Below, piece after piece: positions 1-59,153 of a stretch of DNA of 64,000 nt (positions are counted from its first letter, which is position 1; each line of letters opens with the position of its first letter). The position numbers were made by a program, and so were the translations under genes. The notes below the pieces were generated by a model. That model saw only the letters and a list, made by a program, of their open reading frames with translations, made no database searches and was not told where the DNA came from. Source of the stretch: a virus; the IMG/VR virus record IMGVR_UViG_3300042402_001861, positions 1 through 64,000 of that record; one strand, written 5' to 3'.

Positions 1-348
1 CGTTGCGGGATCGGGAATCGGTATTGTCACATCGGGCAGAACTGACACCCTGTACAACATTGGTGTCACTTCGTTCAATGGTTTGACAGGAAATGTCTCT
101 CTAACTGGATCAGGAGCAATTCTTCATACCGTATCGGGCACTACCACCACTTTGGGTGCGAGACTTGCCACCACCTCGGTCACGGGTGTCGCTTCTTTCA
201 ACAATGTCCACTTCACCGTAGACACAACGGGGCATGTTCAACTTGCCCCCGCCTTTCAAGCCACAGGTGATACAGTCATCACCGTTGCGGGATCGGGAAT
301 CGGTATTGTCACATCGGGCAGAACTGACACCCTGTACAACATTGGTGT
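1..348 (+). repeat. 66-nt exact direct repeat inside the fibre gene (1-66 = 283-348); further near-identical blocks at about 349-483 and 1330-1464
   Basis: Direct sequence comparison. Confidence 0.9.
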
Positions 349-3262
349 GACCTCGTTCAACGGGTTCACGGGTGCCGTACAGGTAACTGGATCGGGAGCA
401 ATTCTCCATACCGTCTCAGGTACAACAACAACGCTAGGTGCAAGACTTGCAACCACGGCTGTCACAGGTGTCGCTTCGTTCAACAATGTCCGTTTTACAG
501 CCACTACTACAGGGCATATTGATCTTGCTGCGGCTTTCCAAGTCACGGGAGATACAGTTGTTGCGGGATCTGCAATCAACATTAGCACTAGCGGAACGAC
601 CAAGACCATCAACAATATTGGTGTGACCTCGTTCAATGGTGCGACAGGTGCAGTCACATTCACGGTTCCGTTGGCAACGACAAGCCTTACTGGAACAGCA
701 TCCTTCAATCCAAGCCGTTTCCAAGTCTCGGCTACTGGAAATGTGGATCTGCTTGCTGCATTCCAAGTCACAGGTCAGACTGTTGTCTCGGGTGGTGCAT
801 CGCAACTTGTTACGACTTCGGGCAACACAGTAACAATCGACAACCGTGTTGCCACCTCAAGCGTCACGGGAGTTGCCTCCTTCAGCAGCACATTCTTTAC
901 TGTGTCGGCTACAGGCAGCGTACAACTTGCTACGGCTTACCAAGCAACTGGATCAGGAATTGCAACAGTTCCTCTTGCAACCACATCCCTGACAGGTACG
1001 GCTTCGTTCAACCCAAACAGGTTCCAAGTTTCTGCCACGGGCAATGTCGATCTGCTTGCTGCATTCCAAGTCACAGGACAGACAGTAGTTTCGGGCGGTG
1101 CATCACAACTCGTATCGACTTCGGGAAATACTGTAACGATTGATAATCGTATTGCCACTTCAAGTGTCACGGGTGTTGCATCGTTCAATGCTACTCGCTT
1201 TACAGTATCGGCAGCGGGTGCGGTAGACCTTGCTGCTGCCTTCCAAGCAACTGGTGACACCATTGTCGCAGGATCCGCTATCAACTTCAGCACTAGCGGA
1301 ACGACCAAGACCATCAACAACATTGGTGTCACCTCGTTCAACGGGTTCACGGGTGCCGTACAGGTAACTGGTTCGGGAGCAATTCTCCATACTGTATCAG
1401 GTACAACAACAACGCTAGGTGCAAGACTTGCAACCACGGCGGTCACGGGTGTTGCCTCGTTCAACACTAATGATTTTGTTGCTTCCACAACGGGGCATGT
1501 CAGTCTTACAGGTACGGTTGCACGGACAAATACAACCAACAACTTCACAGCAATTCAGGCGTTCCCGAATGGACTTTCTGCCCAAGGCGCAACCTTTGCG
1601 GGAATGGTAAGTGTTGCCGATTTCTTGGCGAGAACTGTTGGTGGTGACGAGGGAGGTGAGATCAAACTTGGTCTTGCTCAAACAAACACGACCCTGACAG
1701 GAAACGCCGTCACAATTGATGTATACCAAAACAGACTCCGCATCTTTGAGAGTGGTGGCTCGGCTAGAGGCTACTACATGGATCTGTCCGCTGGTTCGGC
1801 AGGAGCGGGATCCCAACTTGCAACATCTACACCATATTCTCCACCTTTGGCGACTACAAGCGTCACGGGTGTCGCTTCCTTCCGTGCTGCCGACTTTGAT
1901 GTTTCCACAACGGGTTCAGTAAGCCTTACTGGAACTGTTGCGAGAACTAACACATCACAGACCTTTACTGGATTGCAGACTTTTAGTTCCGGCATTTCCG
2001 CCAACGGAATTACGGGAACTCTTCTGACCGCAGCACAGACCAACATCACTTCAGTCGGAACTTTGACTTCCTTGGCTTCCGCAGGACTCACTTCCTCTCA
2101 GAGGATCAATATCACCAACGGTGGTCTATCGGCAGCAGGACCAGTATTCATCCAATCCAATGGCTTGAGTGTCACAGGAGGAATTGCCGGAACTCTTCTG
2201 ACCGCAGCACAGACCAACATCACATCGGTTGGTGTACTCAACGGACTGTCCGTCAACAATGGTCTGAGTGTCACGGGTGGATTGAGTGTAACAGGTGGAG
2301 AAGCAATCTTTGGCGGCAGCAGGATTCAATCTGGTGGGTTGAGTGTGACTGGTGGTGCAAATATCACGGGAGGCTCCTTATTCTTCGGAGACATAGAAGT
2401 CTATGATGGTGCTTTCATCCGTACAGGCGGTCTTTCGGTTACTGGCGGAATCGCAGGAACCATCAGCACAGCAGCACAACCTAATATTACATCGCTAGGA
2501 ACTCTAACTTCCCTTACCACATCAGGTCTTCTTTCCACGCAGGCACTCAGCGTTGTAGCAGGAGCAACATTTGGAATAGGCATCTATGCACCCAACATGG
2601 TCACAGGTGTCAACGGAATCACGGGTGCAGTAAGCATCACATCCGGTTCCAACATCACGATCACACAAAGCGGAAAGACAATAACAATTGCTTCCAGCGG
2701 CGGAGGAGGTGGAAGTCCACCACCACTCGCAACATCAAGCATTACGGGCGTTGCATCCTTCCGAGCAGCAGACTTTGATGTTTCCACAACCGGTTCAGTA
2801 AGCCTGACTGGCACGGTTGCAAGAACCAATGTGGCACAGACATTTACCGCATTACAGAGTTTTTCTTCGGGTCTTTCTGCATCTGGCGGATTGACATTCA
2901 ACTCTGATCTTTCCGTCAACGGAAACATCAACGCCACCACCAAGTCCTTCGTGATCAAGCACCCCATACATGAGGGCATGACCCTGCGCTACGGATCGTT
3001 GGAAGGACCGGAGAATGGCGTGTATGTCCGTGGCAAGTTGGATGGCTCCAATGTCATAGAACTTCCCGACTACTGGAAGAACCTTGTCCATGAAGACAGC
3101 ATCACCGTGAATCTGACACCAATTGGCTCTTCAAACTCACACTTTGTGAAGAAGATCACCGACAACACAGTCATCGTGGGAAGCCGTTCGGGGAAGATCA
3201 ACTGCTTCTATGTGGTCTATGGAGAGCGCAAGGATGTGGATCGCCTGACCGTGGAGTATTGA
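2..3262 (+). CDS. Long Ser/Thr/Gly-rich repetitive tail fibre protein (5'-truncated)
   Basis: Frame open from position 2, so the TTG at 83 is not the true start. Repeated units (ATTSVTGVASF, GAILHTVSGTTTTLGARL, GTLLTAAQTNITSVG). C-terminal TKSFVIKHP...LRYGSLEGPE...IELPDYW domain is typical of phage fibre ends. Confidence 0.85.
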   Translation, partial: VAGSGIGIVTSGRTDTLYNIGVTSFNGLTGNVSLTGSGAILHTVSGTTTTLGARLATTSVTGVASFNNVHFTVDTTGHVQLAPAFQATGDTVITVAGSGIGIVTSGRTDTLYNIGVTSFNGFTGAVQVTGSGAILHTVSGTTTTLGARLATTAVTGVASFNNVRFTATTTGHIDLAAAFQVTGDTVVAGSAINISTSGTTKTINNIGVTSFNGATGAVTFTVPLATTSLTGTASFNPSRFQVSATGNVDLLAAFQVTGQTVVSGGASQLVTTSGNTVTIDNRVATSSVTGVASFSSTFFTVSATGSVQLATAYQATGSGIATVPLATTSLTGTASFNPNRFQVSATGNVDLLAAFQVTGQTVVSGGASQLVSTSGNTVTIDNRIATSSVTGVASFNATRFTVSAAGAVDLAAAFQATGDTIVAGSAINFSTSGTTKTINNIGVTSFNGFTGAVQVTGSGAILHTVSGTTTTLGARLATTAVTGVASFNTNDFVASTTGHVSLTGTVARTNTTNNFTAIQAFPNGLSAQGATFAGMVSVADFLARTVGGDEGGEIKLGLAQTNTTLTGNAVTIDVYQNRLRIFESGGSARGYYMDLSAGSAGAGSQLATSTPYSPPLATTSVTGVASFRAADFDVSTTGSVSLTGTVARTNTSQTFTGLQTFSSGISANGITGTLLTAAQTNITSVGTLTSLASAGLTSSQRINITNGGLSAAGPVFIQSNGLSVTGGIAGTLLTAAQTNITSVGVLNGLSVNNGLSVTGGLSVTGGEAIFGGSRIQSGGLSVTGGANITGGSLFFGDIEVYDGAFIRTGGLSVTGGIAGTISTAAQPNITSLGTLTSLTTSGLLSTQALSVVAGATFGIGIYAPNMVTGVNGITGAVSITSGSNITITQSGKTITIASSGGGGGSPPPLATSSITGVASFRAADFDVSTTGSVSLTGTVARTNVAQTFTALQSFSSGLSASGGLTFNSDLSVNGNINATTKSFVIKHPIHEGMTLRYGSLEGPENGVYVRGKLDGSNVIELPDYWKNLVHEDSITVNLTPIGSSNSHFVKKITDNTVIVGSRSGKINCFYVVYGERKDVDRLTVEY

Positions 3263-5712: not shown

Positions 5713-6504
5713 ATGGCTGACTCTGACAAGAACATCATCATCCGCCCCAATCGCGGTGCAACGGGATCGACCGGGCAGCCGCAGATACGGTTTGTCGGTC
5801 AGAATGCCGATCCGATCACGCTGCGAGTCCTTGACATCACGGGAAGCAGCGCCGGGGCTATCTCGTTCGAGGGTTCTGCCGGACAGTTGTTCTCCATTAC
5901 CAACTCCCTGACATCGGGAAGTATCTTCAGCGTCAACGACATTTCTGGATTACCGAGCATCGATGTCAATGCCAACGGGACCATCCTTTTCGCCGGATTC
6001 ACGGGAAATGTCGGAATCGGTGCAACGGCAGGCATATCGGGTTCGGCACAGAGATTGACCGTGGTTGGCGGAATACATGTGACGGGAGGGGCAAGCAACA
6101 TCGGCGGAACCCTGAACATGAACACGAACCTGATTCGTGACCTTGAGATGCGTGACTATTACGAGACATTGACAACGCCGACATTCTCGGGAGGTGTACT
6201 GACATGTGACCTCAATTCATCTCAGGTCTTCACTCATACCTTGCACTCTTCCATCAACCGCATCGTCCTGAGCAATGTCCCAACCAAGACAAATACGGTC
6301 ATGGGATTCACCCTTGTTGTGAAGCAAGGCACAACGGGCGGAAACACGGCTGCATTCTCGGGCATATCGGGTGCCACGACATTGTTCGCAAACAACGAGG
6401 TTCCCGTCATGTCAACTGGTGCAAACAAGACTGACATAGTTTCATATGTCACCTATGACAACGGTTCAAACTGGTTTGGATTTTTGGGAGGACAGAATTT
6501 CTGA
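5713..6504 (+). CDS. Tail-fibre-associated protein
   Basis: FEGSAGQLFSITN and FTGNVGIG fibre motifs; C-terminal S...TDIVSYVTYDNGSNWFG domain. Confidence 0.65.
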   Translation: MADSDKNIIIRPNRGATGSTGQPQIRFVGQNADPITLRVLDITGSSAGAISFEGSAGQLFSITNSLTSGSIFSVNDISGLPSIDVNANGTILFAGFTGNVGIGATAGISGSAQRLTVVGGIHVTGGASNIGGTLNMNTNLIRDLEMRDYYETLTTPTFSGGVLTCDLNSSQVFTHTLHSSINRIVLSNVPTKTNTVMGFTLVVKQGTTGGNTAAFSGISGATTLFANNEVPVMSTGANKTDIVSYVTYDNGSNWFGFLGGQNF

Positions 6505-6505
6505 T

Positions 6506-8854
6506 ATGTTCGGTGGCATGAATTCCAACATCATTCGCAGAAAACCCGAAACAGGAAACCTTTGGGTATGGGGCAGAGGCTACAACTATGGGTTCCTTGG
6601 ACTTGGAAATCGTGTGAATCTGTCTTCGCCTGTTGCATTGGGTAGAAGAAACGACTGGTATTCTGTTTCTTCTTCGGCAACTCATGCCCTTGCATTGACC
6701 GTAGGAGGAAGATTGTGGGCATGGGGAAACAGCAACAATGGTGAAATAGGAGACAACACCAACCAACCAAGATCATCGCCTGTACAGATAGGCACCTTGA
6801 CCGACTGGACATATGCCCATGCAGGAAGAACCACTTCCTTTGCCATGAGAAGCAATGGAACATTGTGGGCATGGGGACAAAATGGTTCGGGCCAACTTGG
6901 CATCAACAGAACTACAAACACCAACAGTCCGATACAGGTCACATCGGGAGGATTCACGGGTTTTTGGAAAAGCGTAAATGTTGATGAGGCCACGGCAGCG
7001 GTTCGTGGAGATGGGACTTTGTGGACTTGTGGCCTGAACAACTATGGACAACTTGGATTAGGTGTCTTTGGCACCAATATGTCGGTACTCATGCAAGTGA
7101 CGGGAGGAAGCGGAGGCACGGGTGGCTGGAGCAAGGTATCCTCGGGAAGAACACACATATTGGCCCTGAAGGAAGATGGGACATTATGGGCAGCAGGAAA
7201 CAACAGCGCAGGACAACTTGGACTCGGCAACACGGTTTCTAGGTCTGTCTTCTTTCAGATAACTGGAGGGGCAGGAGCAACCAATGACTGGATGCTTCCC
7301 GTGGCAAACAAGGGATTCGGAAGAAAATCATTCGCAATCAAGAGAAACGGCACATTGTGGGGATGGGGATACAATAATTTCTTCTCTCTTGGCTTGGGCG
7401 ATTCGTCAAATCGTTCTGTGCCGGTTCAGATAGGAACATTCACCGACTGGGTTGCCATGATGCCAAGCACGAATGGAGGAACCTTTGGGTTGCGAAGAAA
7501 TGGAACGCTATGGATATGGGGGAACAACAATTATGGCATGGCCGGACAGAGCCTCAGCACATATGGATGGTCGCCCGTGCAGATGGGCACGGGAAACGAC
7601 TGGTCTTCTCTGCTTCAGTCGGGAAGCAACTCTTACAATTTCCTGTTTGCATTGAAGACCAATGGAACCATGTGGGCATGGGGCAGAGGACAGGGAAATT
7701 ACCGTCAGTTGGGATTGGGAAACACGACCAATTTCTCTGCCCCACAGCAGATAACCGGCGGAGGAGGCGCAACCAACGATTGGAAGATGGTCGGTCCAAG
7801 AAGGCAGGGAGGACATGCACTCAGAAACAACGGAACTCTCTGGGGTTGGGGAGAAGCATTTGACTTTCAGAATGGCGACGGAACAAGCACCACAAGATCA
7901 GTACCAACATTGGTGACAGGCGGAGCCGGGGCAACCAATGATTGGGCGACATTTTCTACTGGTCGTTCATTTTGCATGGCCATCAAGACCAATGGAACGC
8001 TTTGGGGGTGGGGAAGAAACAATTACGGTAACCTTGGATTGGGAGACACCACCACCCGATCCTTCGCCACACAGGTTGGCACCGGCAACAATTGGTCCGC
8101 TGTCAAGTGCGGATTTGCCGAAGTACTTGCCACCAAGACCGATGGAACCTTGTGGGGCTGGGGAAGAAATGCAAACGGACAACTTGGATTGCGTGACACG
8201 GTTGCAAGATCATCTCCCGTACAGATCACGGGAGCAGGGGAAACCGGCTGGACAAGGGGACTCACTTCCCTCGGCGTTGGAGGAAGGCATTGCCTTGTGA
8301 TACGAGAAAATGGAACCCTGTGGGGGTTGGGTGGATATGACGGAAGACTTCTTGGAAATGGCGTATTCGGGGGACGGTCAGTCCCCATGCAAATCACGGG
8401 TGCAACTCCCGGTGGCGGCACAAATGACTGGCTTCAGGTAAATTGTACACAAAATCAGACATTTGCATTGAAGACGGACGGCACTCTGTGGTGCTGTGGA
8501 TTTAACGGGTATTCCGTTCTTGGCCTAGGCCGTGCAGGAGAACTTCGTGGGGGTGATGGCTTCGGTCTTGTTGGCAGATTCACTCTTCAGGGAACAACGG
8601 CTGACAAGTGGAAGGATGTTTCTGGAAATGGAGTCAGCATAGCAGGAATACGCCAAGACGGAACCCTTTGGGGATGGGGGGGCAGGAATTACGGCGTTGG
8701 TTGCGTTCCTTACATGGTTCTTATCTCTTCTCCGATGTTGGTATCTTCCTTCAATGGGTGGACAACCAACATTGGAGCAACGGGAGTCAGAAACATTGGA
8801 ACCGGGATCGGTTCGGCAATGGTCATTCGCAGAAGGAAGACAGATCCGAATTGA
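6506..8854 (+). CDS. RCC1/BLIP-II repeat beta-propeller protein with 14 repeats
   Basis: 14 copies of G(T/N/R)LWxWGxNxxGxLG counted by eye; ATG at 6506 directly after the upstream stop is preferred to 6446. Confidence 0.85.
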   Translation: MFGGMNSNIIRRKPETGNLWVWGRGYNYGFLGLGNRVNLSSPVALGRRNDWYSVSSSATHALALTVGGRLWAWGNSNNGEIGDNTNQPRSSPVQIGTLTDWTYAHAGRTTSFAMRSNGTLWAWGQNGSGQLGINRTTNTNSPIQVTSGGFTGFWKSVNVDEATAAVRGDGTLWTCGLNNYGQLGLGVFGTNMSVLMQVTGGSGGTGGWSKVSSGRTHILALKEDGTLWAAGNNSAGQLGLGNTVSRSVFFQITGGAGATNDWMLPVANKGFGRKSFAIKRNGTLWGWGYNNFFSLGLGDSSNRSVPVQIGTFTDWVAMMPSTNGGTFGLRRNGTLWIWGNNNYGMAGQSLSTYGWSPVQMGTGNDWSSLLQSGSNSYNFLFALKTNGTMWAWGRGQGNYRQLGLGNTTNFSAPQQITGGGGATNDWKMVGPRRQGGHALRNNGTLWGWGEAFDFQNGDGTSTTRSVPTLVTGGAGATNDWATFSTGRSFCMAIKTNGTLWGWGRNNYGNLGLGDTTTRSFATQVGTGNNWSAVKCGFAEVLATKTDGTLWGWGRNANGQLGLRDTVARSSPVQITGAGETGWTRGLTSLGVGGRHCLVIRENGTLWGLGGYDGRLLGNGVFGGRSVPMQITGATPGGGTNDWLQVNCTQNQTFALKTDGTLWCCGFNGYSVLGLGRAGELRGGDGFGLVGRFTLQGTTADKWKDVSGNGVSIAGIRQDGTLWGWGGRNYGVGCVPYMVLISSPMLVSSFNGWTTNIGATGVRNIGTGIGSAMVIRRRKTDPN

Positions 8855-8898
8855 GAATATAATTTATTCGATTCGTGGCTAACATTGCGTTCTTATCC

Positions 8899-8904
8899 TA
8901 AATA
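8899..8904 (+). promoter_or_regulatory. Late promoter core TAAATA upstream of the sulfotransferase-GT gene
   Basis: CCTAAATAAGGATGGAG, then ATG at 8922. Confidence 0.6.
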
Positions 8905-8921
8905 AGGATGGAGTCTACATC

Positions 8922-10766
8922 ATGCAGCATACCATTCATTTTCTTTCCGGCCTGCCTCGCAGCGGGTCAACCGTCCTCTCCTCCCTCCTCAATCAGCATC
9001 CACAGGTTCATTCCACTTCAACTAGTGGTCTGATCGACATCATGGGTGCCGTCTGCGTGGCATGGGAGCAATCGCCTTCAACCGTAGCACAGTCTGCCGA
9101 CAAGGAAGAGGCATATCGCCTTCTCCGCTCCGTTGCCGACAGCAAGTATGAAACCGTGTCCAAGCCGGTCATCATCGACAAGAGCCGTGGATGGGCAAAT
9201 CCGCAGATCATGGAAACGCTGACACAGGTTCTCGGAAAGCCGCCAAAGATCATTGCCACGGTCAGGAACCCCGCCGATTGCGCTGCATCGTTTGTCCGTG
9301 TTGCCAAACCAAAGGATGTTCCGAATTTCCTGCGCTCTTCTCAACTCATAGCGCATCTGAAGTCCTCGTATGCAATTCTCAACCAAGGCTACGAGAAGCA
9401 TCCAGAGAATTTCTGCTTCGTTGATTACGATGATCTCATCCAGTCTCCGCAGGCGCAGATGGATCGCATCATCAAGTTCCTTGGTCTTGAGCCACACAAA
9501 TTCGATTTCCACAACATCGACACCAAGGTAGTTGCAGAGAAGGATGATGAGGCATGGGGGATTCCGAATCTTCACACGATAGCCCCTCGCTTGGGCAAGC
9601 AGCATAATCAGGATGCAAGGACGGTTCTTGGCTTCAAATACGATGACTTTGATCCGCCCAAGTTCTGGAAGGGGGAAAATTTTGAAGCACCACGAAAGAA
9701 GAAGAAGATTGACATCTCGGTGGAACTTGCCATGCGTGGGGAATTCGACAAGTCCTACAAGATATTGTGTGAGGCACAGAAAGAGAATCCCGAGTGCAAC
9801 AAAATCGCATTCAACATGGGTTGGTATGCCTTGCGTCAGGATCGCTTGCAGGAAGGCATGGAAAACCTTGCCCGTGGACGGTTTGAGAATTGCTTTGGCA
9901 ATCCCAAGCCACCCGTGCCGACTCCTTTGTGGGATGGAAAAAGCATGGGAACAATTTTGTACAATCTTGAGGCTGGCCTAGGTGACCAGATTCATGCCCT
10001 GAAGTACATTCAAGACATCAATCGTCGTGGTTGTGATGTTATCGTTGCTTGTTCTCCCGAACTCTGCCCGTTGGTGAAAGTTTGCACGGGAGTCAAGATG
10101 ATCATAGACCATGCAGCGGCAGGAATGGTCTATCATGACTTCTGGGTTCCATCCATGTCCGTGCTGTTGCCCCTTGGTTATGAATACAAGGACATCAGCG
10201 GAAAGCCATACATCCCACGGACACGGCATCCTATCAACAAGCGTCCTGTGATAGGTGTGCGTTGGCAGGGAAACCCCAAGTTCGAACATGAACAGAACCG
10301 AAGATTCCCCCTCAAGCCTTTCTTTGATGCTCTTCGCAACATAGATGCGGATTTCATTTGCTTGCAGCGTGACGAAGGGGAGGAAGACTGTCCAGACTTC
10401 ATCAAAAAAGTTGCTCTCAATGATTGGGAACAGACACGGGATGCAATCTCAGGATGTGACTTAGTGATTTCCTCATGTACAAGCGTTGCCCATCTTGCGG
10501 GTGCAATGGGAGTTGAAACCTGGGTCGTGGTTCCTGTTCTCAATTATTACATTTGGAGCGTACCGGGGAACAAGACACCATTCTATGATTCGGTACGGCT
10601 ATTTCGTCAGCAGAAATTTGGCTGTTGGAAGGCTCCGACACAGGAAATTGCCGAGGCATTGGCTGCTAAATATCCGAGCATCAAGCCGCCATCGAAGGCT
10701 GCACCAAGAACAACAAAGGCAACAAGGAGAAATCACAATGCAGAAATATGTCAGAGTAGAGAATGA
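8922..10766 (+). CDS. Sulfotransferase-TPR-glycosyltransferase (GT9-like, GT-B fold) fusion
   Basis: N-terminal SGLPRSGST (PAPS 5'-phosphosulfate loop), DKSRGW and VRNP..CAAS; central helical TPR-like segment; EAGLGDQI and DLVISSCTSVAHLAGAMG motifs of TPR-GT9-like proteins. Confidence 0.8.
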   Translation: MQHTIHFLSGLPRSGSTVLSSLLNQHPQVHSTSTSGLIDIMGAVCVAWEQSPSTVAQSADKEEAYRLLRSVADSKYETVSKPVIIDKSRGWANPQIMETLTQVLGKPPKIIATVRNPADCAASFVRVAKPKDVPNFLRSSQLIAHLKSSYAILNQGYEKHPENFCFVDYDDLIQSPQAQMDRIIKFLGLEPHKFDFHNIDTKVVAEKDDEAWGIPNLHTIAPRLGKQHNQDARTVLGFKYDDFDPPKFWKGENFEAPRKKKKIDISVELAMRGEFDKSYKILCEAQKENPECNKIAFNMGWYALRQDRLQEGMENLARGRFENCFGNPKPPVPTPLWDGKSMGTILYNLEAGLGDQIHALKYIQDINRRGCDVIVACSPELCPLVKVCTGVKMIIDHAAAGMVYHDFWVPSMSVLLPLGYEYKDISGKPYIPRTRHPINKRPVIGVRWQGNPKFEHEQNRRFPLKPFFDALRNIDADFICLQRDEGEEDCPDFIKKVALNDWEQTRDAISGCDLVISSCTSVAHLAGAMGVETWVVVPVLNYYIWSVPGNKTPFYDSVRLFRQQKFGCWKAPTQEIAEALAAKYPSIKPPSKAAPRTTKATRRNHNAEICQSRE

Positions 10767-11163
10767 CCAAGTGGTTGAATGCCTTGACTATCTTCCCGGT
10801 ACACCGGGAGATTGGCGGGAGGCAATCGACATCACACCGACTCTTATACCTTTAAAGCAAATTTGTGGGCCACATCATTTCGATATCAGCAAGAATCCCG
10901 TAGAAATCGTGTGGAGCGTGATTGACTTGAATGAGCAGGAACGGAAGGAAACATTGATGAATATTCTGGTTAGTCCCTTGACCTTCAAAATGCAGCAAGA
11001 AATGCAAAAAGAATTCAACAATTCTTTAGAGGGAATTGGAATGGATGTTGATTTTGTTCGTTCGTTGACTGAACAAGTTCGGGCAATCAAGACAGAGATT
11101 GCTGCCCTGACCACTCACGAAGAAATTGATGCATACATCGCCGCCAAGGGAATCACTCCCTGA
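10738..11163 (+). CDS. Hypothetical protein, possible fibre assembly chaperone
   Basis: AAGGAG SD then ATG at 10738 (MQKYVRVEND); helical C-terminus. Confidence 0.6.
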   Translation: MQKYVRVENDQVVECLDYLPGTPGDWREAIDITPTLIPLKQICGPHHFDISKNPVEIVWSVIDLNEQERKETLMNILVSPLTFKMQQEMQKEFNNSLEGIGMDVDFVRSLTEQVRAIKTEIAALTTHEEIDAYIAAKGITP

Positions 11164-11193
11164 ACTGACTTTCACAATTAGTGGGGACAAGTC

Positions 11194-12006
11194 GTGAGAA
11201 TTGCTTTTACCATCATACATAATGGTCTTCATCACCTGAAGCACAACGATCAAGCGGAGAGAATCCTTTCGATGTGCGACAGGTGGGTGGTGGTGGAAGG
11301 AGCCGCCCGTTCCAAGGGCAGCACGACTTGGTGCAAGGAGTTTCCCGAAAGTCTCCATGAAAATGGAGCCAGCGTGGACGGGACATTGGATTACCTGAAC
11401 GATCTTTCGCAGAAGAACGACAGGCTGATCCTTGTCCCGTCCACCGGCTTCTGGGAATCCAAGGATCATCAGGTCAATCGGGCAATTGTGGAAGTCCGCA
11501 AGATCACGGATCGCTGTTTCCTGTGGGAGTTCGATGCCGACGAGCAATGGGATGCTGAGTCGATGGATGCAGCGGAAAAAGAACTTGTTGAAAAGAACGC
11601 CAAGGCAGGATGTTTTGCAGCAGATTGCTACATCGGCAGGAACCTGATGGCAATCGGAGATTGGGGCGAGGCAAGGACATACGGATACACCCGCCTGTGG
11701 AATTGGGAAGGCGAGAACTTCATCTGCCATGAGCCTCCCGTGCTTGAGGGGCTGATGGGGATCGATCCAACCATGCTGTCGCCTAGATTCAAGCACTACA
11801 ACTATCACTTTGAGAAGGATGTTGCATTCAAGGATGCATGGTATGGTGGTCATGAGGGAATCCTTGAAAGATGGAAGTTGATCAATTCCCTTGACAAGCG
11901 ATTCTTCCCAATGCACATCTCAAACCTCATCACGGGGCCGTGGGGCAAGTCCAACAGCGCAATAATATGGAACAATAGAAATGAAGAACATCCTCGTCAT
12001 TGGTGA
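11194..12006 (+). CDS. Glycosyltransferase, GT-A/GT2-like
   Basis: VVVEG...SVDGT and WEFDADEQW (DxD) motifs; GTG start. Confidence 0.7.
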   Translation: MRIAFTIIHNGLHHLKHNDQAERILSMCDRWVVVEGAARSKGSTTWCKEFPESLHENGASVDGTLDYLNDLSQKNDRLILVPSTGFWESKDHQVNRAIVEVRKITDRCFLWEFDADEQWDAESMDAAEKELVEKNAKAGCFAADCYIGRNLMAIGDWGEARTYGYTRLWNWEGENFICHEPPVLEGLMGIDPTMLSPRFKHYNYHFEKDVAFKDAWYGGHEGILERWKLINSLDKRFFPMHISNLITGPWGKSNSAIIWNNRNEEHPRHW

Positions 12007-12721
12007 CAGTTGCCGAGATATCTTTGTGTACTGCGATGCACATAGGCTATGCCCCGATGTTCCTGTTCCTGTGTTGAATGTCTCCTATCAAACAGAGAAC
12101 AAGGGAATGGCTTTGAATGTTCAGGAGAATATCAAGGCTCTTGGACAGCCTTGCGACATCTTCACAAATTCAAATTGGCACGATGTCACCAAGACTCGCT
12201 ATGTCCACGCAACAAGCAACCATGCTTTCTTCCGTGTTGACTCTGGCATCAAGCCAGAAAGAATGATGAATTGTCCTTCTCTTCTATACGGGATGATCGT
12301 GATCTCCGATTACAACAAGGGATTTCTCAAGGAAGAAGACATTGCAGCCATCTGTTCCATGCACGACAATGTATTCGTTGACACCAAGAAGCGACTTGGC
12401 CCATGGCTCAACCATGCCCGATACATCAAAATCAATGCATCCGAGTACATGGCATCCAAAGAATTCATCACGCCGGAACTGAAGGACAAGATCGTCGTTA
12501 CCCTCGGCAAGGATGGCTGCGAACACAGGGATCATATCTATCCCGTGCAGCAATCCGATGTCCGTGATGTCTCGGGAGCAGGAGACACCTTCCTCGCGGG
12601 ACTTTGCGTGAAGTACTTGCAGACAAGCGACATAGAGGAATCCATAATGTTTGCAAATCGTTGTGCGGCTTCTGTGGTGAAGCATCGTGGAGTCACGGTG
12701 GTTGATCCGAATGAAATCTGA
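11981..12721 (+). CDS. hldA: PfkB-family heptose-7-phosphate kinase (HldE kinase domain / HldA-like)
   Basis: ILVIGD...RLCPDVPVPV (compare RISPEAPVPV), ISDYNKG, DVSGAGDTF PfkB signature. Confidence 0.85.
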   Translation: MKNILVIGDSCRDIFVYCDAHRLCPDVPVPVLNVSYQTENKGMALNVQENIKALGQPCDIFTNSNWHDVTKTRYVHATSNHAFFRVDSGIKPERMMNCPSLLYGMIVISDYNKGFLKEEDIAAICSMHDNVFVDTKKRLGPWLNHARYIKINASEYMASKEFITPELKDKIVVTLGKDGCEHRDHIYPVQQSDVRDVSGAGDTFLAGLCVKYLQTSDIEESIMFANRCAASVVKHRGVTVVDPNEI

Positions 12722-13136
12722 AATCAACAAGATTGTACTCACCAACGGCGTGTTTGATGTCATTCACAGAAAGCACATCGAACTCCTGTCATTCTGTAAG
12801 GAGCAAGGTGACTATCTGATCGTGGCGATAGATTCGGATCGCAGGGTGAGAGAAACCAAGGGAAGCACTCGCCCAATCAACAGCGAGATGGACAGGAAGT
12901 TTGTTCTGAATTCCTTGAAATTTGTTGACGAAGTTCTTGTGTTTGACACGATCCAAGACCTTCGGCAATTGCACAAAGGGATTCGCCCAAACATCTATGT
13001 AAAGGGCGGTGACTGGCAGGAATCGTTTCTGCGTGAAACCGATGGTATACTTCCTGCCACCAAGGTCATCCTCTTTCCATACGAGAATTCCTATTCCTCC
13101 ACGAAGACCATAGAAAGAATGAGGCAATCGCAATGA
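12711..13136 (+). CDS. hldC: Heptose-1-phosphate nucleotidyltransferase (HldE domain II / HldC-like)
   Basis: TNGVFDVIHxxH, LIVAIDSD..VRETKG..RPIN...R, YVKGGDW, YSST..IER; ATG at 12711. Confidence 0.85.
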   Translation: MKSEINKIVLTNGVFDVIHRKHIELLSFCKEQGDYLIVAIDSDRRVRETKGSTRPINSEMDRKFVLNSLKFVDEVLVFDTIQDLRQLHKGIRPNIYVKGGDWQESFLRETDGILPATKVILFPYENSYSSTKTIERMRQSQ

Positions 13137-14044
13137 TCGTTGTTACCGGCGCATCTGGCTTCATAGGAAGCAGGATGGTTGCATATCTGAACACATTGGG
13201 CATCACGGACATAGCCGTAGTTGATGACTTTGAGGTCAATCACAGGCTCGGGTATGCAAGCAAGGCAAACTACGCCAACTTGCAGTCTTGTGAGTTTGGG
13301 ACCGTGCATCCAATCATCATGAGTAGGGATTCGATACTTCCTGTTGGTGACATTCAGGCAGTATTTCACTTTGGTGCCATCAGCAACACTCTCGAAAAGG
13401 ACACCTCAAGGCTCTACAACTACAATACCCGCTACACCTACATCCTTGGCGAGGCTTGCAAGGAGAGGGGCATTCCCCTGCTGTTCAGTTCAACCGCAGC
13501 AGTCTATGGCAACGGAAACGGTCCTCTGAACGACTATGCCAAGTCCAAGAGGATTTCCGAAAAAGATATATCTGCTCATGCCGTATGCTTCAGGCTTTTC
13601 AATGTGTATGGTCCCAACGAATCACACAAGGGCAGGATGGCATCGGTAATCCATCATTGGCACAACCAACTGACCAAGAACGGAATTCTTGAGATGTTTG
13701 AAGGTTCCCATGCGTACAAGCGTGACTTCATTTGGGTCAACGATGTGTGCCGAGTCTTTCATTCGGCATCGATCAACTACCAGCCGGGAATCTATGACTT
13801 GGGAAGCGGCAGGAGCGAAGCCCTTGACAAGGTTGCTAGAGTGGTGATTGCTGCTCATGGTGGCGGTGAAATCAAGGAGATACCGATGCCAAGCGACTTG
13901 GCGCTTCAGTATCAGACAAACACGCAGTCAGATATTGTTGCCATAAGAAACAATGGTTGGTGCGTAGACATGATGGGAATTGAGATGGGAATCCCCCTGT
14001 ACATCGAAAAGTTGAGGAACGCAAAATGGCAAGTCGCAAGTTGA
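13133..14044 (+). CDS. hldD: ADP-L-glycero-D-manno-heptose 6-epimerase
   Basis: MIVVTGASGFIGS, FHFGAISNT, SSTAAVYG, YAKSK, RLFNVYGPNESHKGRMASV, RDFIWVNDV. Confidence 0.9.
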   Translation: MIVVTGASGFIGSRMVAYLNTLGITDIAVVDDFEVNHRLGYASKANYANLQSCEFGTVHPIIMSRDSILPVGDIQAVFHFGAISNTLEKDTSRLYNYNTRYTYILGEACKERGIPLLFSSTAAVYGNGNGPLNDYAKSKRISEKDISAHAVCFRLFNVYGPNESHKGRMASVIHHWHNQLTKNGILEMFEGSHAYKRDFIWVNDVCRVFHSASINYQPGIYDLGSGRSEALDKVARVVIAAHGGGEIKEIPMPSDLALQYQTNTQSDIVAIRNNGWCVDMMGIEMGIPLYIEKLRNAKWQVAS

Positions 14045-14394
14045 AGAGCGAGATGGTGGAAAAAGGTTGGGGCAACGAGATCATCTTTGCCAACAACGGA
14101 AGATACTGCGGAAAGTTGCTGAACCTGAACGCAGGAAAGAAGTTCAGTATGCACTTTCACCTGATGAAGGACGAGACATGGTATGTCGCCAAGGGAAGCC
14201 TGATACTTCGTTGGATCGACACCTCGGATGGCAAGACGCATTGGGAGAAACTTGATGTGGGAGATGTAGTGAGGAACTTCTCGGGGTTTCCCCATCAACT
14301 TGAGGCAATAGAAGACTCAACGATATTTGAAGTTTCCACCCAACACTTCGACCACGACAGTTACCGTGTACTGCCCGGAGACAGCCAGAAGTGA
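14026..14394 (+). CDS. Cupin-fold sugar isomerase-like protein
   Basis: KGWGNE, FSMHFH..KDETWYV, PHQLEA cupin metal-binding motifs. Confidence 0.75.
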   Translation: MASRKLKSEMVEKGWGNEIIFANNGRYCGKLLNLNAGKKFSMHFHLMKDETWYVAKGSLILRWIDTSDGKTHWEKLDVGDVVRNFSGFPHQLEAIEDSTIFEVSTQHFDHDSYRVLPGDSQK

Positions 14395-14711
14395 GATACG
14401 CCTTCGACATCGACAATACATTGGTTTCCACGCAGGGTAGCGATTACCAAAATTCAACCCCGATACAACATCGAATTGATTCGGTGAATCGTCTTTACGA
14501 GGAAGGCCATACCATAATTCTTTTCACGGCAAGGGGTTCTGCATCAGGCAATGACTATACAGAATTCACCAAGCAGCAGATGGAGAAATTCGGAGTCAAG
14601 TATCATGTTCTCATCACGGGCAAGCCGGATGTAGATGTCTTCATAGATGACAAGGCAATGTCGGTTCGCGAGTGGGATCGAAAGCAAGGACGAATTGTTC
14701 TTCGCTTTTGA
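14391..14711 (+). CDS. Small capless HAD-family phosphatase
   Basis: FDIDNT (DxD), FTARG, GKP, FIDDKA. Confidence 0.8.
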   Translation: MRYAFDIDNTLVSTQGSDYQNSTPIQHRIDSVNRLYEEGHTIILFTARGSASGNDYTEFTKQQMEKFGVKYHVLITGKPDVDVFIDDKAMSVREWDRKQGRIVLRF

Positions 14712-14748: not shown

Positions 14749-14777
14749 TTGCACGAATGAGTGTTTCTGCGTATCCT
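14749..14777 (+). promoter_or_regulatory. Sigma70-like promoter upstream of RNR (TTGCAC-17-TATCCT); late core TAAATA at 14784-14789
   Basis: Intergenic position and 17-nt spacer. Confidence 0.5.
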
Positions 14778-14823
14778 TTGGTCTAAATACACTCACCAAA
14801 CAAGACACAACAAGGAGAAGAAA

Positions 14824-16746
14824 ATGAGTGAACACGGACTTCCCACGCCTTACCAGCATTTCATCCATCTTTCAAGATATTCAAGATGGCTTGAATCGGA
14901 GAACCGCAGAGAGACATGGGAAGAAACGGTGGCTCGTTACTTCGACTTCTTTGACAAGCACCTTGGCAGCAAGATCACCAAGGAGCATCGCAAGGAACTT
15001 GAGACTGCCGTTCTGAACCTTGAGGTGATGCCTTCCATGCGGGCATTGATGACCGCCGGTCCTGCTCTTGAGCGTTGCAATGTAGCGGGATACAACTGTG
15101 CATTCGTGGCAGTCAATCGTGTCCGTGCTTTCGATGAAATCCTCTATGTGCTGATGTGTGGCACGGGAGTGGGCTTCAGCGTGGAGAATCGCTTCGTCTA
15201 CAAGTTGCCGACCGTTGCCGAGGAATTCTTCCCAAGCGACACCGTGATCGTGGTTGAGGATTCCAAGATCGGATGGGCAAAGGCATTCAAGGAACTCATC
15301 AGCCTGCTGATTGTAGGACAACTTCCCAAGTGGGATGTCTCCAAGGTCCGTTCCAAGGGTGCAAGACTCAAGACATTTGGTGGCCGTGCAAGCGGTCCCG
15401 ATCCGCTTGTCGAATTGTTCAAGTTCACATCCGACACCTTCCGTAAGGCAGCAGGCCGCAAGTTGACAACAATTGAATGCCATGACATCGTTTGCAAGAT
15501 CGCGGAGATCGTGGTGGTTGGTGGCGTTCGTCGCTCTGCATTGATCAGCCTGTCTGACCTCAACGATGAGCGGATGCGTAATGCCAAGGTTGGTCAATGG
15601 TGGGTGATCGATCCACAGAGGGCATTGGCAAACAACTCTGCCGTCTACCAAGAGAAGCCCGAGATCGGCACCTTCATGGACGAGTGGGTTTCTCTGTACA
15701 AGTCAAGGAGCGGTGAGCGTGGAATTTTCAATCGCGATGCAGCCAAGAAGCAAGTTTCGAAGTTGGGTGATCGTCGTGATCCAAACTTTGACTTTGGAAC
15801 AAACCCATGCTCGGAGATCATCCTGCGTGACCGTGAATTCTGCAACTTGTCCGAAGTGGTGATTCGCAGCACCGACAGCGTGAATGACCTGACTCGCAAG
15901 GTTCGTCTTGCTGCCATCCTTGGCACATGGCAGGCATCCCTGACCAACTTCCGCTACATCTCAAGCGAGTGGAAGAAGAACTGCGAGGAGGAGGCTTTGC
16001 TTGGGGTTTCGCTCACGGGAATCCTTGACAATTCCCTGCTGCGAAACTACAACAATCTTGATGGACTTCTTGAAACAATGAAGCAAGTCGCAGTCAAGAC
16101 AAACGCCGAATGGGCAAAGAAGATCGGCATCAACCCTGCCGCAGCCATCACTTGCGTCAAGCCTTCGGGAACTGTGTCTCAGTTGGTTGACGCTGCTTCA
16201 GGAATCCATGCCCGTCACAGCGAATACTACATTCGCACAGTCCGGGCAGACCGCAAGGATCCGCTGTGTCAGTTCATGATCGACCAAGGCTTCCCCGCAG
16301 AGCCTTGCGTGATGCGTCCTGACCATACGATGGTTTTCTCTTTCCCAATGAAGTCGCCAAAGGGTTCACCTACACGAAACGACATCACGGCCATTGAACA
16401 TCTTGAATTGTGGAAGATGTACCAAGACCATTGGTGTGAACATAAGCCTTCCATCACGATCACGGTTCGTGAGCATGAATGGCTTGATGTTGGTGCATGG
16501 GTCTACAATCACATTGACAGCATCTCGGGAATTTCGTTCCTACCTCACTCCGATCACAGTTATCAGCAGGCACCATACCAAGACTGCACCAAGGAGCAGT
16601 ACGAGGCCATGGTTGCCAAGATGCCGAAGAATGTCGATTGGAGCCTGCTGTCAAATTACGAGAAGGAAGACAATACCGCAGGGACGCAGACATTCGCATG
16701 TTCTGCGGGTTCGTGTGAGATTGTTGACTTAACACAAGCGAGTTGA
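14824..16746 (+). CDS. nrdJ: Class II (adenosylcobalamin-dependent) ribonucleotide reductase
   Basis: PSMRALMTAG, YNC, GGVRRSALI, TNPCSEI, FCNLSEV, TCVKPSGTVSQL, C-terminal CSAGSCE; AAGGAG SD before ATG at 14824; no beta-subunit gene adjacent. Confidence 0.92.
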   Translation: MSEHGLPTPYQHFIHLSRYSRWLESENRRETWEETVARYFDFFDKHLGSKITKEHRKELETAVLNLEVMPSMRALMTAGPALERCNVAGYNCAFVAVNRVRAFDEILYVLMCGTGVGFSVENRFVYKLPTVAEEFFPSDTVIVVEDSKIGWAKAFKELISLLIVGQLPKWDVSKVRSKGARLKTFGGRASGPDPLVELFKFTSDTFRKAAGRKLTTIECHDIVCKIAEIVVVGGVRRSALISLSDLNDERMRNAKVGQWWVIDPQRALANNSAVYQEKPEIGTFMDEWVSLYKSRSGERGIFNRDAAKKQVSKLGDRRDPNFDFGTNPCSEIILRDREFCNLSEVVIRSTDSVNDLTRKVRLAAILGTWQASLTNFRYISSEWKKNCEEEALLGVSLTGILDNSLLRNYNNLDGLLETMKQVAVKTNAEWAKKIGINPAAAITCVKPSGTVSQLVDAASGIHARHSEYYIRTVRADRKDPLCQFMIDQGFPAEPCVMRPDHTMVFSFPMKSPKGSPTRNDITAIEHLELWKMYQDHWCEHKPSITITVREHEWLDVGAWVYNHIDSISGISFLPHSDHSYQQAPYQDCTKEQYEAMVAKMPKNVDWSLLSNYEKEDNTAGTQTFACSAGSCEIVDLTQAS

Positions 16747-57959: not shown

Positions 57960-59153
57960 ATGACGATCACGATTGAGCAGACCACACCTTCCGCCGTAGT
58001 TTCCGCCACGGCTCCCGCAACCACCAACAAGAAGACGAAGACTGTCACGCTGTGCATGATCGTGAAGAACGAAGCACGGGTGATTGAGCGTTGCCTTGCT
58101 TCGGTGCTTCCCATCATCGACCATTGGGTCATCGTGGACACGGGTTCCACGGACGGAACGCAGGAGAAGATCCTGAAGTTCTTTGAGAATGTCGGCATCC
58201 CCGGCGAACTGTACGAGCGTCCGTGGAAGAACTTCGGGCATAACCGCAGCGAGGCACTTCAACTGGCCAAGGACAAGGCCGATTATTCCTACATGATTGA
58301 TGCCGACGAGGTTCTTGTCTTTGAACCCGGCTTTGATCCCGACAAGTTCAAGGAAACACTCAACGCCGACCTGTACAACATCTTTGCACTCTACGGCGGG
58401 ACTCGCTATCACCGTCCGCAGATGACGAGCAACAAGAAGAACTTCTACTACCGTGGCGTACTTCATGAGTATGTCGATTGCCATGATCCAATCGAAACCC
58501 GAGACTTTGCCCGTGGCTTCATGAACACCCCTATTCAGGACGGCAATCGCTCAAGCATGGAGAAGAAGTACGAGCGAGATGCAGAGGTTTTCGAGGAAGC
58601 ACTCAAGGGTGAGGTCGATCCCAAGGACTTCAACCGCTATCACTTCTATCTTGCACAGTCCTATCGCGACTCGCAGCAATGGGAGAAGGCTCTTGCTGCC
58701 TACATGAAGCGGGCGGAACTTGGCGGATGGAACGAGGAAGTATTCTACTCGCTCTATCAGGCAGGACGCATCATGGAAGTTCTGAACAAGAACATCGATG
58801 ACATCATCAAGGTGTACTTCAATGCCTATCAGGCGGCTCCCTATCGTGCAGAGAGCCTTTGGGCCGCTGCCCGTCTTTGCCGCATGAACATCCGTTTCGA
58901 TCAGGCATATACCTTCGCAAAGCAGGGACTCAAGTGCCGTTGCCCCGAAGGTGCCCTGTTCATCGGTGCCCCGATCTACGAGTGGATGTTGCTTGACGAG
59001 TTCGCCATCGCCGCTTACTGGACAGGTCATTTCAAGGAGTCTCGAATGGCTTCGATTCAGTTGCTCAACAGCAACAAGTTCCCTCCCGATCAGAAGGAGA
59101 GAATCGAGATGAACCTCAAGTTTGCAACCGAAGAACTGATGAACGGAGGCTGA
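57960..59153 (+). CDS. GT2-family glycosyltransferase with C-terminal TPRs
   Basis: LCMIVKNE...CL.S, VDTGSTDGT, IDADE, VLHE; FYLAQSY and ALAAY TPR helices. Confidence 0.85.
   Translation: MTITIEQTTPSAVVSATAPATTNKKTKTVTLCMIVKNEARVIERCLASVLPIIDHWVIVDTGSTDGTQEKILKFFENVGIPGELYERPWKNFGHNRSEALQLAKDKADYSYMIDADEVLVFEPGFDPDKFKETLNADLYNIFALYGGTRYHRPQMTSNKKNFYYRGVLHEYVDCHDPIETRDFARGFMNTPIQDGNRSSMEKKYERDAEVFEEALKGEVDPKDFNRYHFYLAQSYRDSQQWEKALAAYMKRAELGGWNEEVFYSLYQAGRIMEVLNKNIDDIIKVYFNAYQAAPYRAESLWAAARLCRMNIRFDQAYTFAKQGLKCRCPEGALFIGAPIYEWMLLDEFAIAAYWTGHFKESRMASIQLLNSNKFPPDQKERIEMNLKFATEELMNGG

Follow-up and report, generated by a model that had tools for sequence, protein, structure and literature searches.

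TibC and AAH are glycosyltransferases that heptosylate adhesins encoded beside them. Among phages, mycobacteriophage virions are described as being glycosylated by phage enzymes, in the account that PMC12801897 gives of Freeman 2023, and tail-collar proteins are the predicted targets of sulfotransferase operons, which would act by hydroxylation followed by sulfation (PMC2938197). These three, autotransporter heptosylation, mycobacteriophage virion glycosylation and the tail-collar sulfotransferase prediction, are the nearest concepts to a block of genes at positions 8922-14711 of the window analysed here, by which we mean the whole stretch of 64,000 nucleotides that forms the first 64 kb of the 177,364-bp IMG/VR virus record IMGVR_UViG_3300042402_001861 (completeness judged 98%). 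The block is a mostly overlapping, eight-gene operon on the plus strand that encodes seven sugar-related proteins and one 141-amino-acid (aa) protein of no known family. An earlier note on this stretch, made from the sequence alone, had read it as a single integrated sugar system with which the phage makes activated heptose late in infection and attaches it to its own Ser/Thr-rich fibres. Comparison with related loci shows that the block is two separable mobile modules lying side by side and not one integrated seven-gene system. The first, module A, consists of an RCC1 propeller protein, a TPR-GT9-like enzyme that may carry an N-terminal sulfotransferase domain, as it does here, and the 141-aa protein; the second, module B, is a heptose cassette and an optional neighbour of the first.

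Two separable modules in a fibre and baseplate region

Relatives of the sulfotransferase-TPR-GT9-like fusion are common, with at least 587 IMG/VR loci and 1124 proteins at E-values up to 0.001. We searched 80 of these loci, which span 45-78% identity and 32-62% GC, with every protein of the window. An RCC1 protein lies near the enzyme in 77 of the 80, and starting from RCC1 instead gives the enzyme in 63 of 79 loci (19 of 28 where 3 kb are available on both sides). The 141-aa protein is present in 59 of the 80, and both it and the RCC1 protein are on the enzyme's strand in every locus listed, usually adjacent. The link between RCC1 and enzyme survives rearranged gene order, and in one locus (L039) RCC1 genes stand on both sides of the enzyme, the two additional ones being those after it. 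Forms of the enzyme that lack the sulfotransferase domain also adjoin RCC1; a metagenome-assembled genome (MAG) of Planctomycetota has a tail-fibre-like gene, RCC1 and TPR-GT9 in a row, without a sulfotransferase. The enzyme is split in the cultured phage S-SRM01, where the sulfotransferase stands alone (33% identity, E 3e-38) and the TPR-GT9-like part is a gene of its own; each of the two comes after an RCC1 gene, close behind the genes for the baseplate wedge and the long tail fibre. The order in phage BUCT-ZZ01 is tail fibre, small open reading frame (ORF), RCC1 (annotated 'BNR repeat domain protein') and TPR-GT9-like. Directly after the TPR-GT9-like gene of S-SRM01 there is also a gene for a 2-oxoglutarate-Fe(II) oxygenase (7971-8429 of that locus, L287), which recalls the hydroxylation-then-sulfation scheme of PMC2938197.

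The heptose genes behave differently, being found in only 17-19 of the 80 fusion-relative loci. Downstream flank of 7 kb or more is available for 42 loci, of which 14 have the cassette, nine the GT-A glycosyltransferase and 36 the 141-aa protein, and of the 80 best kinase loci just two hold the fusion, so that the seven sugar genes cannot be treated as the one system that the earlier note had seen in them. Within kinase loci, the kinase, HldC, HAD and cupin genes travel together. Where cassettes do lie directly downstream of module A, they do so in at least three gene orders and with kinases of 33-64% identity, and in five other loci (L004, L005, L010, L011 and L012) module A, with or without the GT-A gene, runs straight into a gene resembling ribonucleotide reductase (RNR).

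Co-occurrence with fibre genes was one of the checks that the earlier note had put forward, and the outcome is divided. It is strong for the RCC1 protein in both directions, as described above, but the Ser/Thr-rich fibre (2-3262) that had been proposed as the substrate is discarded as a conserved partner of the enzyme, having a homologue nearby in just three of the 80 loci. Nor is that fibre an unusual, substrate-like sequence; it is made of common fibre repeats and contains 28% Ser plus Thr, against 15-21% in other structural proteins. The RCC1 fibre protein is thus the likelier target of the two. Its gene is the only RCC1 gene in the genome, and several observations make the protein fibre-associated. 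The tail-fibre domain of phrog_9017, which is the C-terminal domain of the tail-fibre-like protein at 5713-6504, precedes RCC1 within a single ORF in five loci (L019, L020, L024, L030 and L072), the module is flanked by tail-fibre or baseplate genes in BUCT-ZZ01 and S-SRM01, and an RCC1-domain protein is reported as a structural protein of the jumbo phage GAP32, identified by mass spectrometry (PMC5259590). The window has the two domains in separate genes, in different frames and with an overlap of 59 nt, for which a frameshift, a natural split and a wrongly called start of the RCC1 gene are all possible causes.

The window encodes T4-type baseplate, tail-tube and gp5/gp6-like proteins, and its sole DNA match to a cultured phage is 448 nt of the kinase gene, 66% identical to Synechococcus phage S-SM2; for these reasons the source is a T4-like cyanomyovirus, and the block lies within its fibre and baseplate region. 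Much of what the earlier note had described here is confirmed. The eight plus-strand genes are as it listed them, with junctions of -29, +30, -26, -35, -4, -19 and -4 nt in order, and three proteins with LamG domains and the RCC1 protein do lie upstream, to which we add the tail-fibre-like protein between them. Its domain assignments also hold when each gene is assigned by profile and by structure, since Pfam, NCBIfam and PHROG families agree with the folds obtained from AlphaFold models, VIA-align and Foldseek, although Pfam itself has no match for two genes (those for the 141-aa and 270-aa proteins) or for the C-terminal 360 residues of the first gene. One detail is revised, in that a longer start, at 10486, is unnecessary for the hypothetical gene, the start at 10738 having its own ribosome-binding site upstream.

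With regard to expression, the earlier note had reported a late-promoter core before the operon. The heptamer CTAAATA is indeed there, and it is enriched five-fold in the window (12 copies against 2.4 expected, a number reached in none of 100 shuffles); no copy of the canonical T4 late promoter, TATAAATA, occurs in the window. Several copies of CTAAATA precede an ORF start by no more than about 40 nt, for example before the tail tube cap gene at 29246, so the motif is common to the operon and to the upstream regions of baseplate and tail-tube genes. From this late-type motif we infer that the operon is expressed late.

Folds and families of the encoded proteins

The fusion (8922-10766, 614 aa) was modelled with AlphaFold (predicted local distance difference test, pLDDT, 88.3) and compared with representatives of the Protein Data Bank (PDB) by VIA-align. 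By fold it has three parts, namely a sulfotransferase (aa 1-253), a TPR segment (aa 259-325) and a GT9-like glycosyltransferase (aa 342-585). The first matches Sulfotransfer_3 (PF13469) over aa 7-190 with 73.7 bits against a 27-bit cut-off (E 3.4e-20), and superposes on TPST1 with Z 18.3 (root-mean-square deviation, rmsd, 3.5 over 235 aligned residues) and on TPST2 with Z 17.9. Its GLPRSGST motif (aa 10-17) is the 5'-phosphosulfate-binding loop. By sequence, the nearest solved structure is the CurM sulfotransferase (E 3.4e-6). We found no adenosine 5'-phosphosulfate kinase in the phage, and hence the sulfate donor 3'-phosphoadenosine 5'-phosphosulfate (PAPS) must come from the host. TPR arrays match aa 259-324 (Z about 9, rmsd 1.7-3.1), and a bacterial homologue has many Pfam TPR matches preceding the same C-terminal domain; the chromosomal neighbourhood of that homologue consists of housekeeping genes and offers no clue to the acceptor.

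All of the nearest folds to the third domain are GT9 enzymes: WaaC (Z 16.4, rmsd 3.3, 230 aligned), WaaF (15.8), 3tov (15.7) and TibC (14.8), with the next GT-B enzyme outside GT9 at about Z 10. Sequence comparison is less decisive. PF01075, the GT9 family, is matched below threshold in 17 of 31 family members (best E 0.0066), whereas no other family is shared by more than three of them, and a homologue from Kordiimonas scores 20.5 bits where 22 are required. A scan of the phage's own genome gave no PF01075 match, and a profile of the domain found no PDB glycosyltransferase. After the first strand, GLGDQIH can be matched by eye to MGDVLH of WaaC, which holds the catalytic D13, and D355 of the fusion is at least 90% conserved. 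Alignment to E. coli WaaC by hhalign was confined to the signature segment, where SSCTSVAHL of the phage pairs with SVDTGLSHL of WaaC (the D-T-G-x-x-H-L signature), with Thr and His kept. The predicted fold is GT9-like, but GT9 membership is not established and the donor could be a different one.

The full-length fusion does not occur among the cultured-phage records listed, and the literature searched holds no other example of such a sulfotransferase fused to a glycosyltransferase. Close homologues of the module are also present on MAG contigs labelled Saccharibacteria, Woesearchaeota, Phycisphaerales and others, most likely misbinned phage contigs.

Table 1. Features of the two modules and of the motif that precedes the operon (coordinates are positions in the window)
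Feature	Coordinates	Strand	Basis or remark
Tail-fibre-like protein, 263 aa	5713..6504	+	phrog_9017 'tail fiber protein' E 7e-14; three other tail-fibre PHROGs
RCC1 double beta-propeller protein, 802 aa	6446..8854	+	PF25390 E 4.9e-96; 10 RCC1 repeats
CTAAATA, late-promoter-like motif	8898..8904	+	17 nt before start codon of fusion gene
PAPS sulfotransferase domain, aa 1-253	8922..9680	+	PF13469 and TPST fold
TPR linker, aa 259-325	9696..9896	+	VIA-align to TPR arrays
GT9-like GT-B glycosyltransferase domain, aa 342-585	9945..10676	+	Fold; sub-threshold PF01075
Conserved accessory protein, 141 aa, no known family	10738..11163	+	AAGGAG ribosome-binding site upstream
GT-A (GT2-like) glycosyltransferase, 270 aa	11194..12006	+	Foldseek; invariant acidic motif
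Compact HldA-like heptose-7-phosphate kinase, 246 aa	11981..12721	+	TIGR02198 (rfaE domain I) E 6e-34
HldC-like heptose-1-phosphate nucleotidyltransferase	12687..13136	+	TIGR02199 (rfaE domain II) E 2.4e-38
HldD ADP-glycero-manno-heptose 6-epimerase	13133..14044	+	TIGR02197 E 4e-65
Metal-binding cupin	14026..14394	+	Cupin_2 and Cupin_1 matches; weak mannose-6-phosphate isomerase matches
Minimal capless HAD phosphatase, 106 aa	14391..14711	+	PDB 9iqw; TIGR01689

Profile searches of Pfam, PHROG and PDB gave no match for the 141-aa protein. Its neighbours in the ESM Atlas are weakly tail-fibre-chaperone-like (scores 0.86-0.88), which we take as a lead only, and a complex prediction with the fusion (score 0.00, mark 0.32) is uninformative either way. 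The model of the 270-aa protein (pLDDT 94.3) has a GT-A fold resembling CgT, SunS and GtrB (Foldseek probability 1.0, TM about 0.46), with D114-x-D116-E117 invariant in its family; PF00535 does not match it and is precomputed for only three of its homologues. A length of about 460 aa and an additional FkbM-family methyltransferase (PF05050) are common among those homologues, one has Glyco_transf_25 instead, and the copy in the window has no extra domain; the FkbM fusions hint at a methylated sugar in those phages. In L039 the genes for the accessory protein and HldC are separated by one of 261 aa, which was considered as a relative and proved to be unrelated to the GT-A family.

For the kinase, the HldC-like protein and HldD, the families in Table 1 are the best matches by far, at 117.6, 131.2 and 220 bits, although each score falls short of its NCBIfam equivalog cut-off (345, 181.5 and 274.6 bits). 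The next-best family for the kinase is ribokinase (2.8e-9), and it also matches phrog_8133 (E 1.4e-85). The HldC-like protein probably starts at the Met at 12711. Over its full length, HldD shares 37% identity with the E. coli enzyme (E 1e-62), and this identity suggests that the product is an ADP-linked L,D-heptose; the nucleotide cannot be called from the HldC-like protein itself, whose C-terminal NSYSSTKT is unlike the (F/L)xxGRSTT motif reported for broad-specificity enzymes of this type (PMC11573728).

The first and third steps of the known pathway have no orthologue here. No SIS-fold GmhA (TIGR00441) occurs in this 98%-complete genome or in five other cassette-carrying records, one of them 100% complete. 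The cupin keeps its metal-binding residues and accompanies the cassette in 43 of 80 kinase loci, and on family resemblance it is a candidate sedoheptulose-7-phosphate isomerase in place of GmhA, a role as aldose-ketose isomerase being chemically natural for it. The 106-aa HAD protein is closest to a 134-aa 'capsule biosynthesis protein' in the PDB (9iqw, E 4.5e-14) and to the capsule-biosynthesis minimal HAD family TIGR01689 (E 6.6e-7), with the DxDxT, T, K and DD motifs all visible. It falls outside the GmhB-type HAD-IIIA group, scoring 24.8 bits on TIGR01662 against a cut-off of 44.6, and its sequence makes it a candidate GmhB analogue.

The heptose genes as such are gene content already annotated in cyanophages. 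The families of the kinase, HldC, HAD, cupin and epimerase are clusters T4-GC 304-308 of S-SM2, and HldC homologues are found in S-CAM1, S-CAM3, P-TIM68, S-T4, S-SSM7, P-SSM2 and others; such cyanophage genes appear in a genome announcement as lipopolysaccharide (LPS) genes acquired from the host (PMC7378029). According to a commentary, viral heptose enzymes have been shown to make nucleoside diphosphate (NDP)-heptoses, and it calls their physiological role in viruses unsolved (PMC11573728).

Beyond the operon, the next gene (14761-16746) encodes a 661-aa protein with weak matches to class II RNR only (E 1.8e-8); a copy of CTAAATA at 14783 lies inside its called 5' end, and the true start may be further downstream. 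A second glycosyltransferase (57960-59153; phrog_13126 'beta-1,4-glycosyltransferase', E 1.6e-26) has CTAAATA 36 nt upstream and adjoins another set of putative fibre-like genes.

Acceptor, donor and alternative readings

The reading that we tentatively favour, and which we hold to be quite possible if a little short of probable, is that module A decorates a fibre with heptose supplied by the cassette. In such a scheme module A (5713-11163) would be a fibre-decoration unit with a cytoplasmic fusion enzyme, whose TPR segment would, late in infection, recruit the RCC1 beta-propeller fibre protein encoded with it; the fusion would then glycosylate the RCC1 protein and sulfate either the sugar or the protein, with the 141-aa protein acting as an accessory factor or chaperone. 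Module B (11981-14711) would supply the donor. Sedoheptulose-7-phosphate would be converted to heptose-7-phosphate by the cupin, then to heptose-1,7-bisphosphate by the kinase, to heptose-1-phosphate by the HAD phosphatase, to ADP-D,D-heptose by the HldC-like enzyme and to ADP-L,D-heptose by HldD, while the GT-A enzyme would add or extend a further sugar. The operon probably makes activated heptose, and the phage would have to bring this pathway because its cyanobacterial hosts reportedly put no heptose in their LPS. We infer heptose as the donor of the GT9-like domain. The idea, already in the earlier note, that the phage modifies its own fibres gains from the setting among fibre and baseplate genes and from the RCC1 link, and loses the Ser/Thr-rich fibre as its target.

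Several points weigh against heptose decoration of the fibre. The cassette is absent from 28 of the 42 module A loci with enough flank and 78 of the 80 best kinase loci have no fusion nearby, and because either can be present without the other the enzyme cannot generally depend on the cassette. The match of the GT9-like domain to PF01075 is under the gathering score (10.9 against 22 bits, E 0.28), and in the weak hhalign alignment (probability 7%) the signature D261 of WaaC pairs with an invariant Cys, so that a donor other than ADP-heptose is possible. In sequence, the sulfotransferase is no closer to TPST than to CurM, a polyketide sulfotransferase, and for that reason a protein acceptor is not implied for it. 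Only eight of 78 relatives have a TAAATA core upstream of the enzyme, against a background of 3.3%, and conservation of the neighbourhood, in a hypervariable host-recognition region, could partly reflect shared ancestry. Both acceptor and donor, moreover, are read from fold and context.

A different explanation, which we consider unlikely, is that the GT-A and GT9-like enzymes, together with the heptose pathway, remodel the host envelope by adding heptose-containing and possibly sulfated sugars to LPS, O-antigen or exopolysaccharide, the outcome being a block to superinfection or altered grazing and the proximity to fibre genes being only that of a plastic host-recognition region. Characterised GT9 enzymes are mostly LPS-core heptosyltransferases, and the capsule biosynthesis protein that is closest to the HAD phosphatase would fit this reading. 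Host-envelope remodelling is also the standard reading of cyanophage sugar genes (PMC7378029, PMC7029224, PMC12801897), and in S-SM2 the same cassette is remote from any RCC1 and belongs to a polysaccharide-type cluster of 17 kb that also has several glycosyltransferases, a capsular-polysaccharide protein, an aldolase and a transketolase-like gene. For the cassette itself such a role is therefore possible. Yet modification of a protein is the better reading than modification of the LPS core, because the cyanobacterial core is reviewed as having neither heptose nor Kdo, so that a WaaC/WaaF-type acceptor would be missing (PMC4390846), because the enzyme has a TPR segment, and because no initiating transferase for a lipid carrier (PF02397 or PF00953) is present in the phage genome. 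There is only a sub-threshold match to Wzy_C, or O-antigen ligase (14.4 bits, E 0.002), in a 330-aa ORF at 158334-158531, outside the window. Envelope remodelling would also leave unexplained the TPR segment and the near-obligate, two-way linkage with RCC1 across 32-62% GC and through rearrangements, and the enzyme therefore probably decorates the RCC1 fibre rather than host LPS.

The separability of the modules could also mean that they are unrelated neighbours, module A modifying the RCC1 fibre with a non-heptose donor supplied by the host and the cassette, with or without the GT-A enzyme, serving a different purpose, for instance a host glycan or a soluble NDP-heptose metabolite. The same absences that count against heptose decoration count for such independence, as do the five loci in which module A, with or without GT-A, meets the RNR-like gene directly, the Cys that aligns with the GT9 signature Asp, and the unsolved role of viral heptose enzymes (PMC11573728). 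We nevertheless judge it improbable overall, since the cassette recurs directly downstream of module A with low sequence identity and a varied gene order, which argues for selection on the linkage, and since all of the structures closest to the transferase domain are heptosyltransferases. Transfer of activated heptose to phage DNA bases, as T4 glucosylates hydroxymethylcytosine, is suggested by the RNR-like gene that the cluster abuts and by the frequency with which phage glycosyltransferases modify DNA (PMC7029224, PMC12801897), but we hold it to be very improbable indeed; the 98%-complete genome has no gene of the thymidylate-synthase or dCMP-hydroxymethylase families, the transferases resemble GT9 and GT-A and not the solved phage DNA glycosyltransferases, and the TPR segment and RCC1 linkage would again go unexplained.

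If the enzyme does decorate the RCC1 fibre, some 'LPS auxiliary metabolic genes' would be virion-maturation genes, and the host range and adsorption of abundant marine and freshwater myoviruses would depend on a post-translational fibre code. The fullest version, a widespread module of aquatic myoviruses that adds both heptose and sulfate to an RCC1 receptor-binding fibre, with a phosphomannose isomerase-like cupin for GmhA and a 106-aa HAD for GmhB, seems to us rather doubtful as a whole; if true, it would as far as the searchable literature shows be a first both for protein heptosylation in viruses and for the sulfation of proteins or glycans in phages. The cassette may in any case replace two steps of a much-studied pathway with non-orthologous enzymes, and it bears on the purpose of NDP-heptose in viruses that PMC11573728 calls unsolved.

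Comparison with known systems

The phage enzyme has much in common with the TibC/TibA and AAH/AIDA-I systems. It has a GT-B, GT9-type fold (with the TibC match given above), it would be cytoplasmic, it is encoded beside a repetitive, beta-rich surface protein, and ADP-heptose is available as a possible donor. Unlike TibC, it matches WaaC and WaaF slightly better and has gained a TPR segment and an N-terminal sulfotransferase, and its candidate acceptor is an RCC1 propeller rather than a beta-helix, while its similarity to the family lies below the Pfam threshold and the signature Asp aligns with a Cys. For the glycosylation of mycobacteriophages, we know of no sugar-nucleotide pathway or sulfotransferase. 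As far as the source mentioned at the outset goes, the likeness to that system lies in phage glycosyltransferases that stand beside structural genes and would decorate virion proteins; the enzyme families and the hosts differ, and here the decoration is read from the genes alone.

The cassette has its counterpart in the ADP-L-glycero-beta-D-manno-heptose pathway, of which the kinase, nucleotidyltransferase and epimerase are clear homologues. It departs from that pathway in having neither a SIS-fold GmhA nor a GmhB-type HAD-IIIA, in whose places stand the cupin and the 106-aa capless HAD, in a kinase that lacks about 70 residues, and in scores that all fall below the equivalog cut-offs. The same cassette families occur in the cyanomyoviruses S-SM2, SynMITS9220M01, P-SSM2, S-CAM1 and P-TIM68, but there the cassettes belong to other sugar clusters, which in S-SM2 at least have no RCC1 or fusion nearby. 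With the sulfotransferases of the TPST and CurM type (PF13469), the phage domain shares the fold and the PAPS-binding loop; its sequence does not tell the class of acceptor.

The literature that we searched contains no description of the RCC1-enzyme module, of the fusion or of the small accessory protein. Set against the systems above, then, what appears to be new here, as judged by predicted folds and gene context, is the fusion of a sulfotransferase, a TPR segment and a GT9-like glycosyltransferase, its tight coupling to an RCC1 protein, and the accessory protein that accompanies them.

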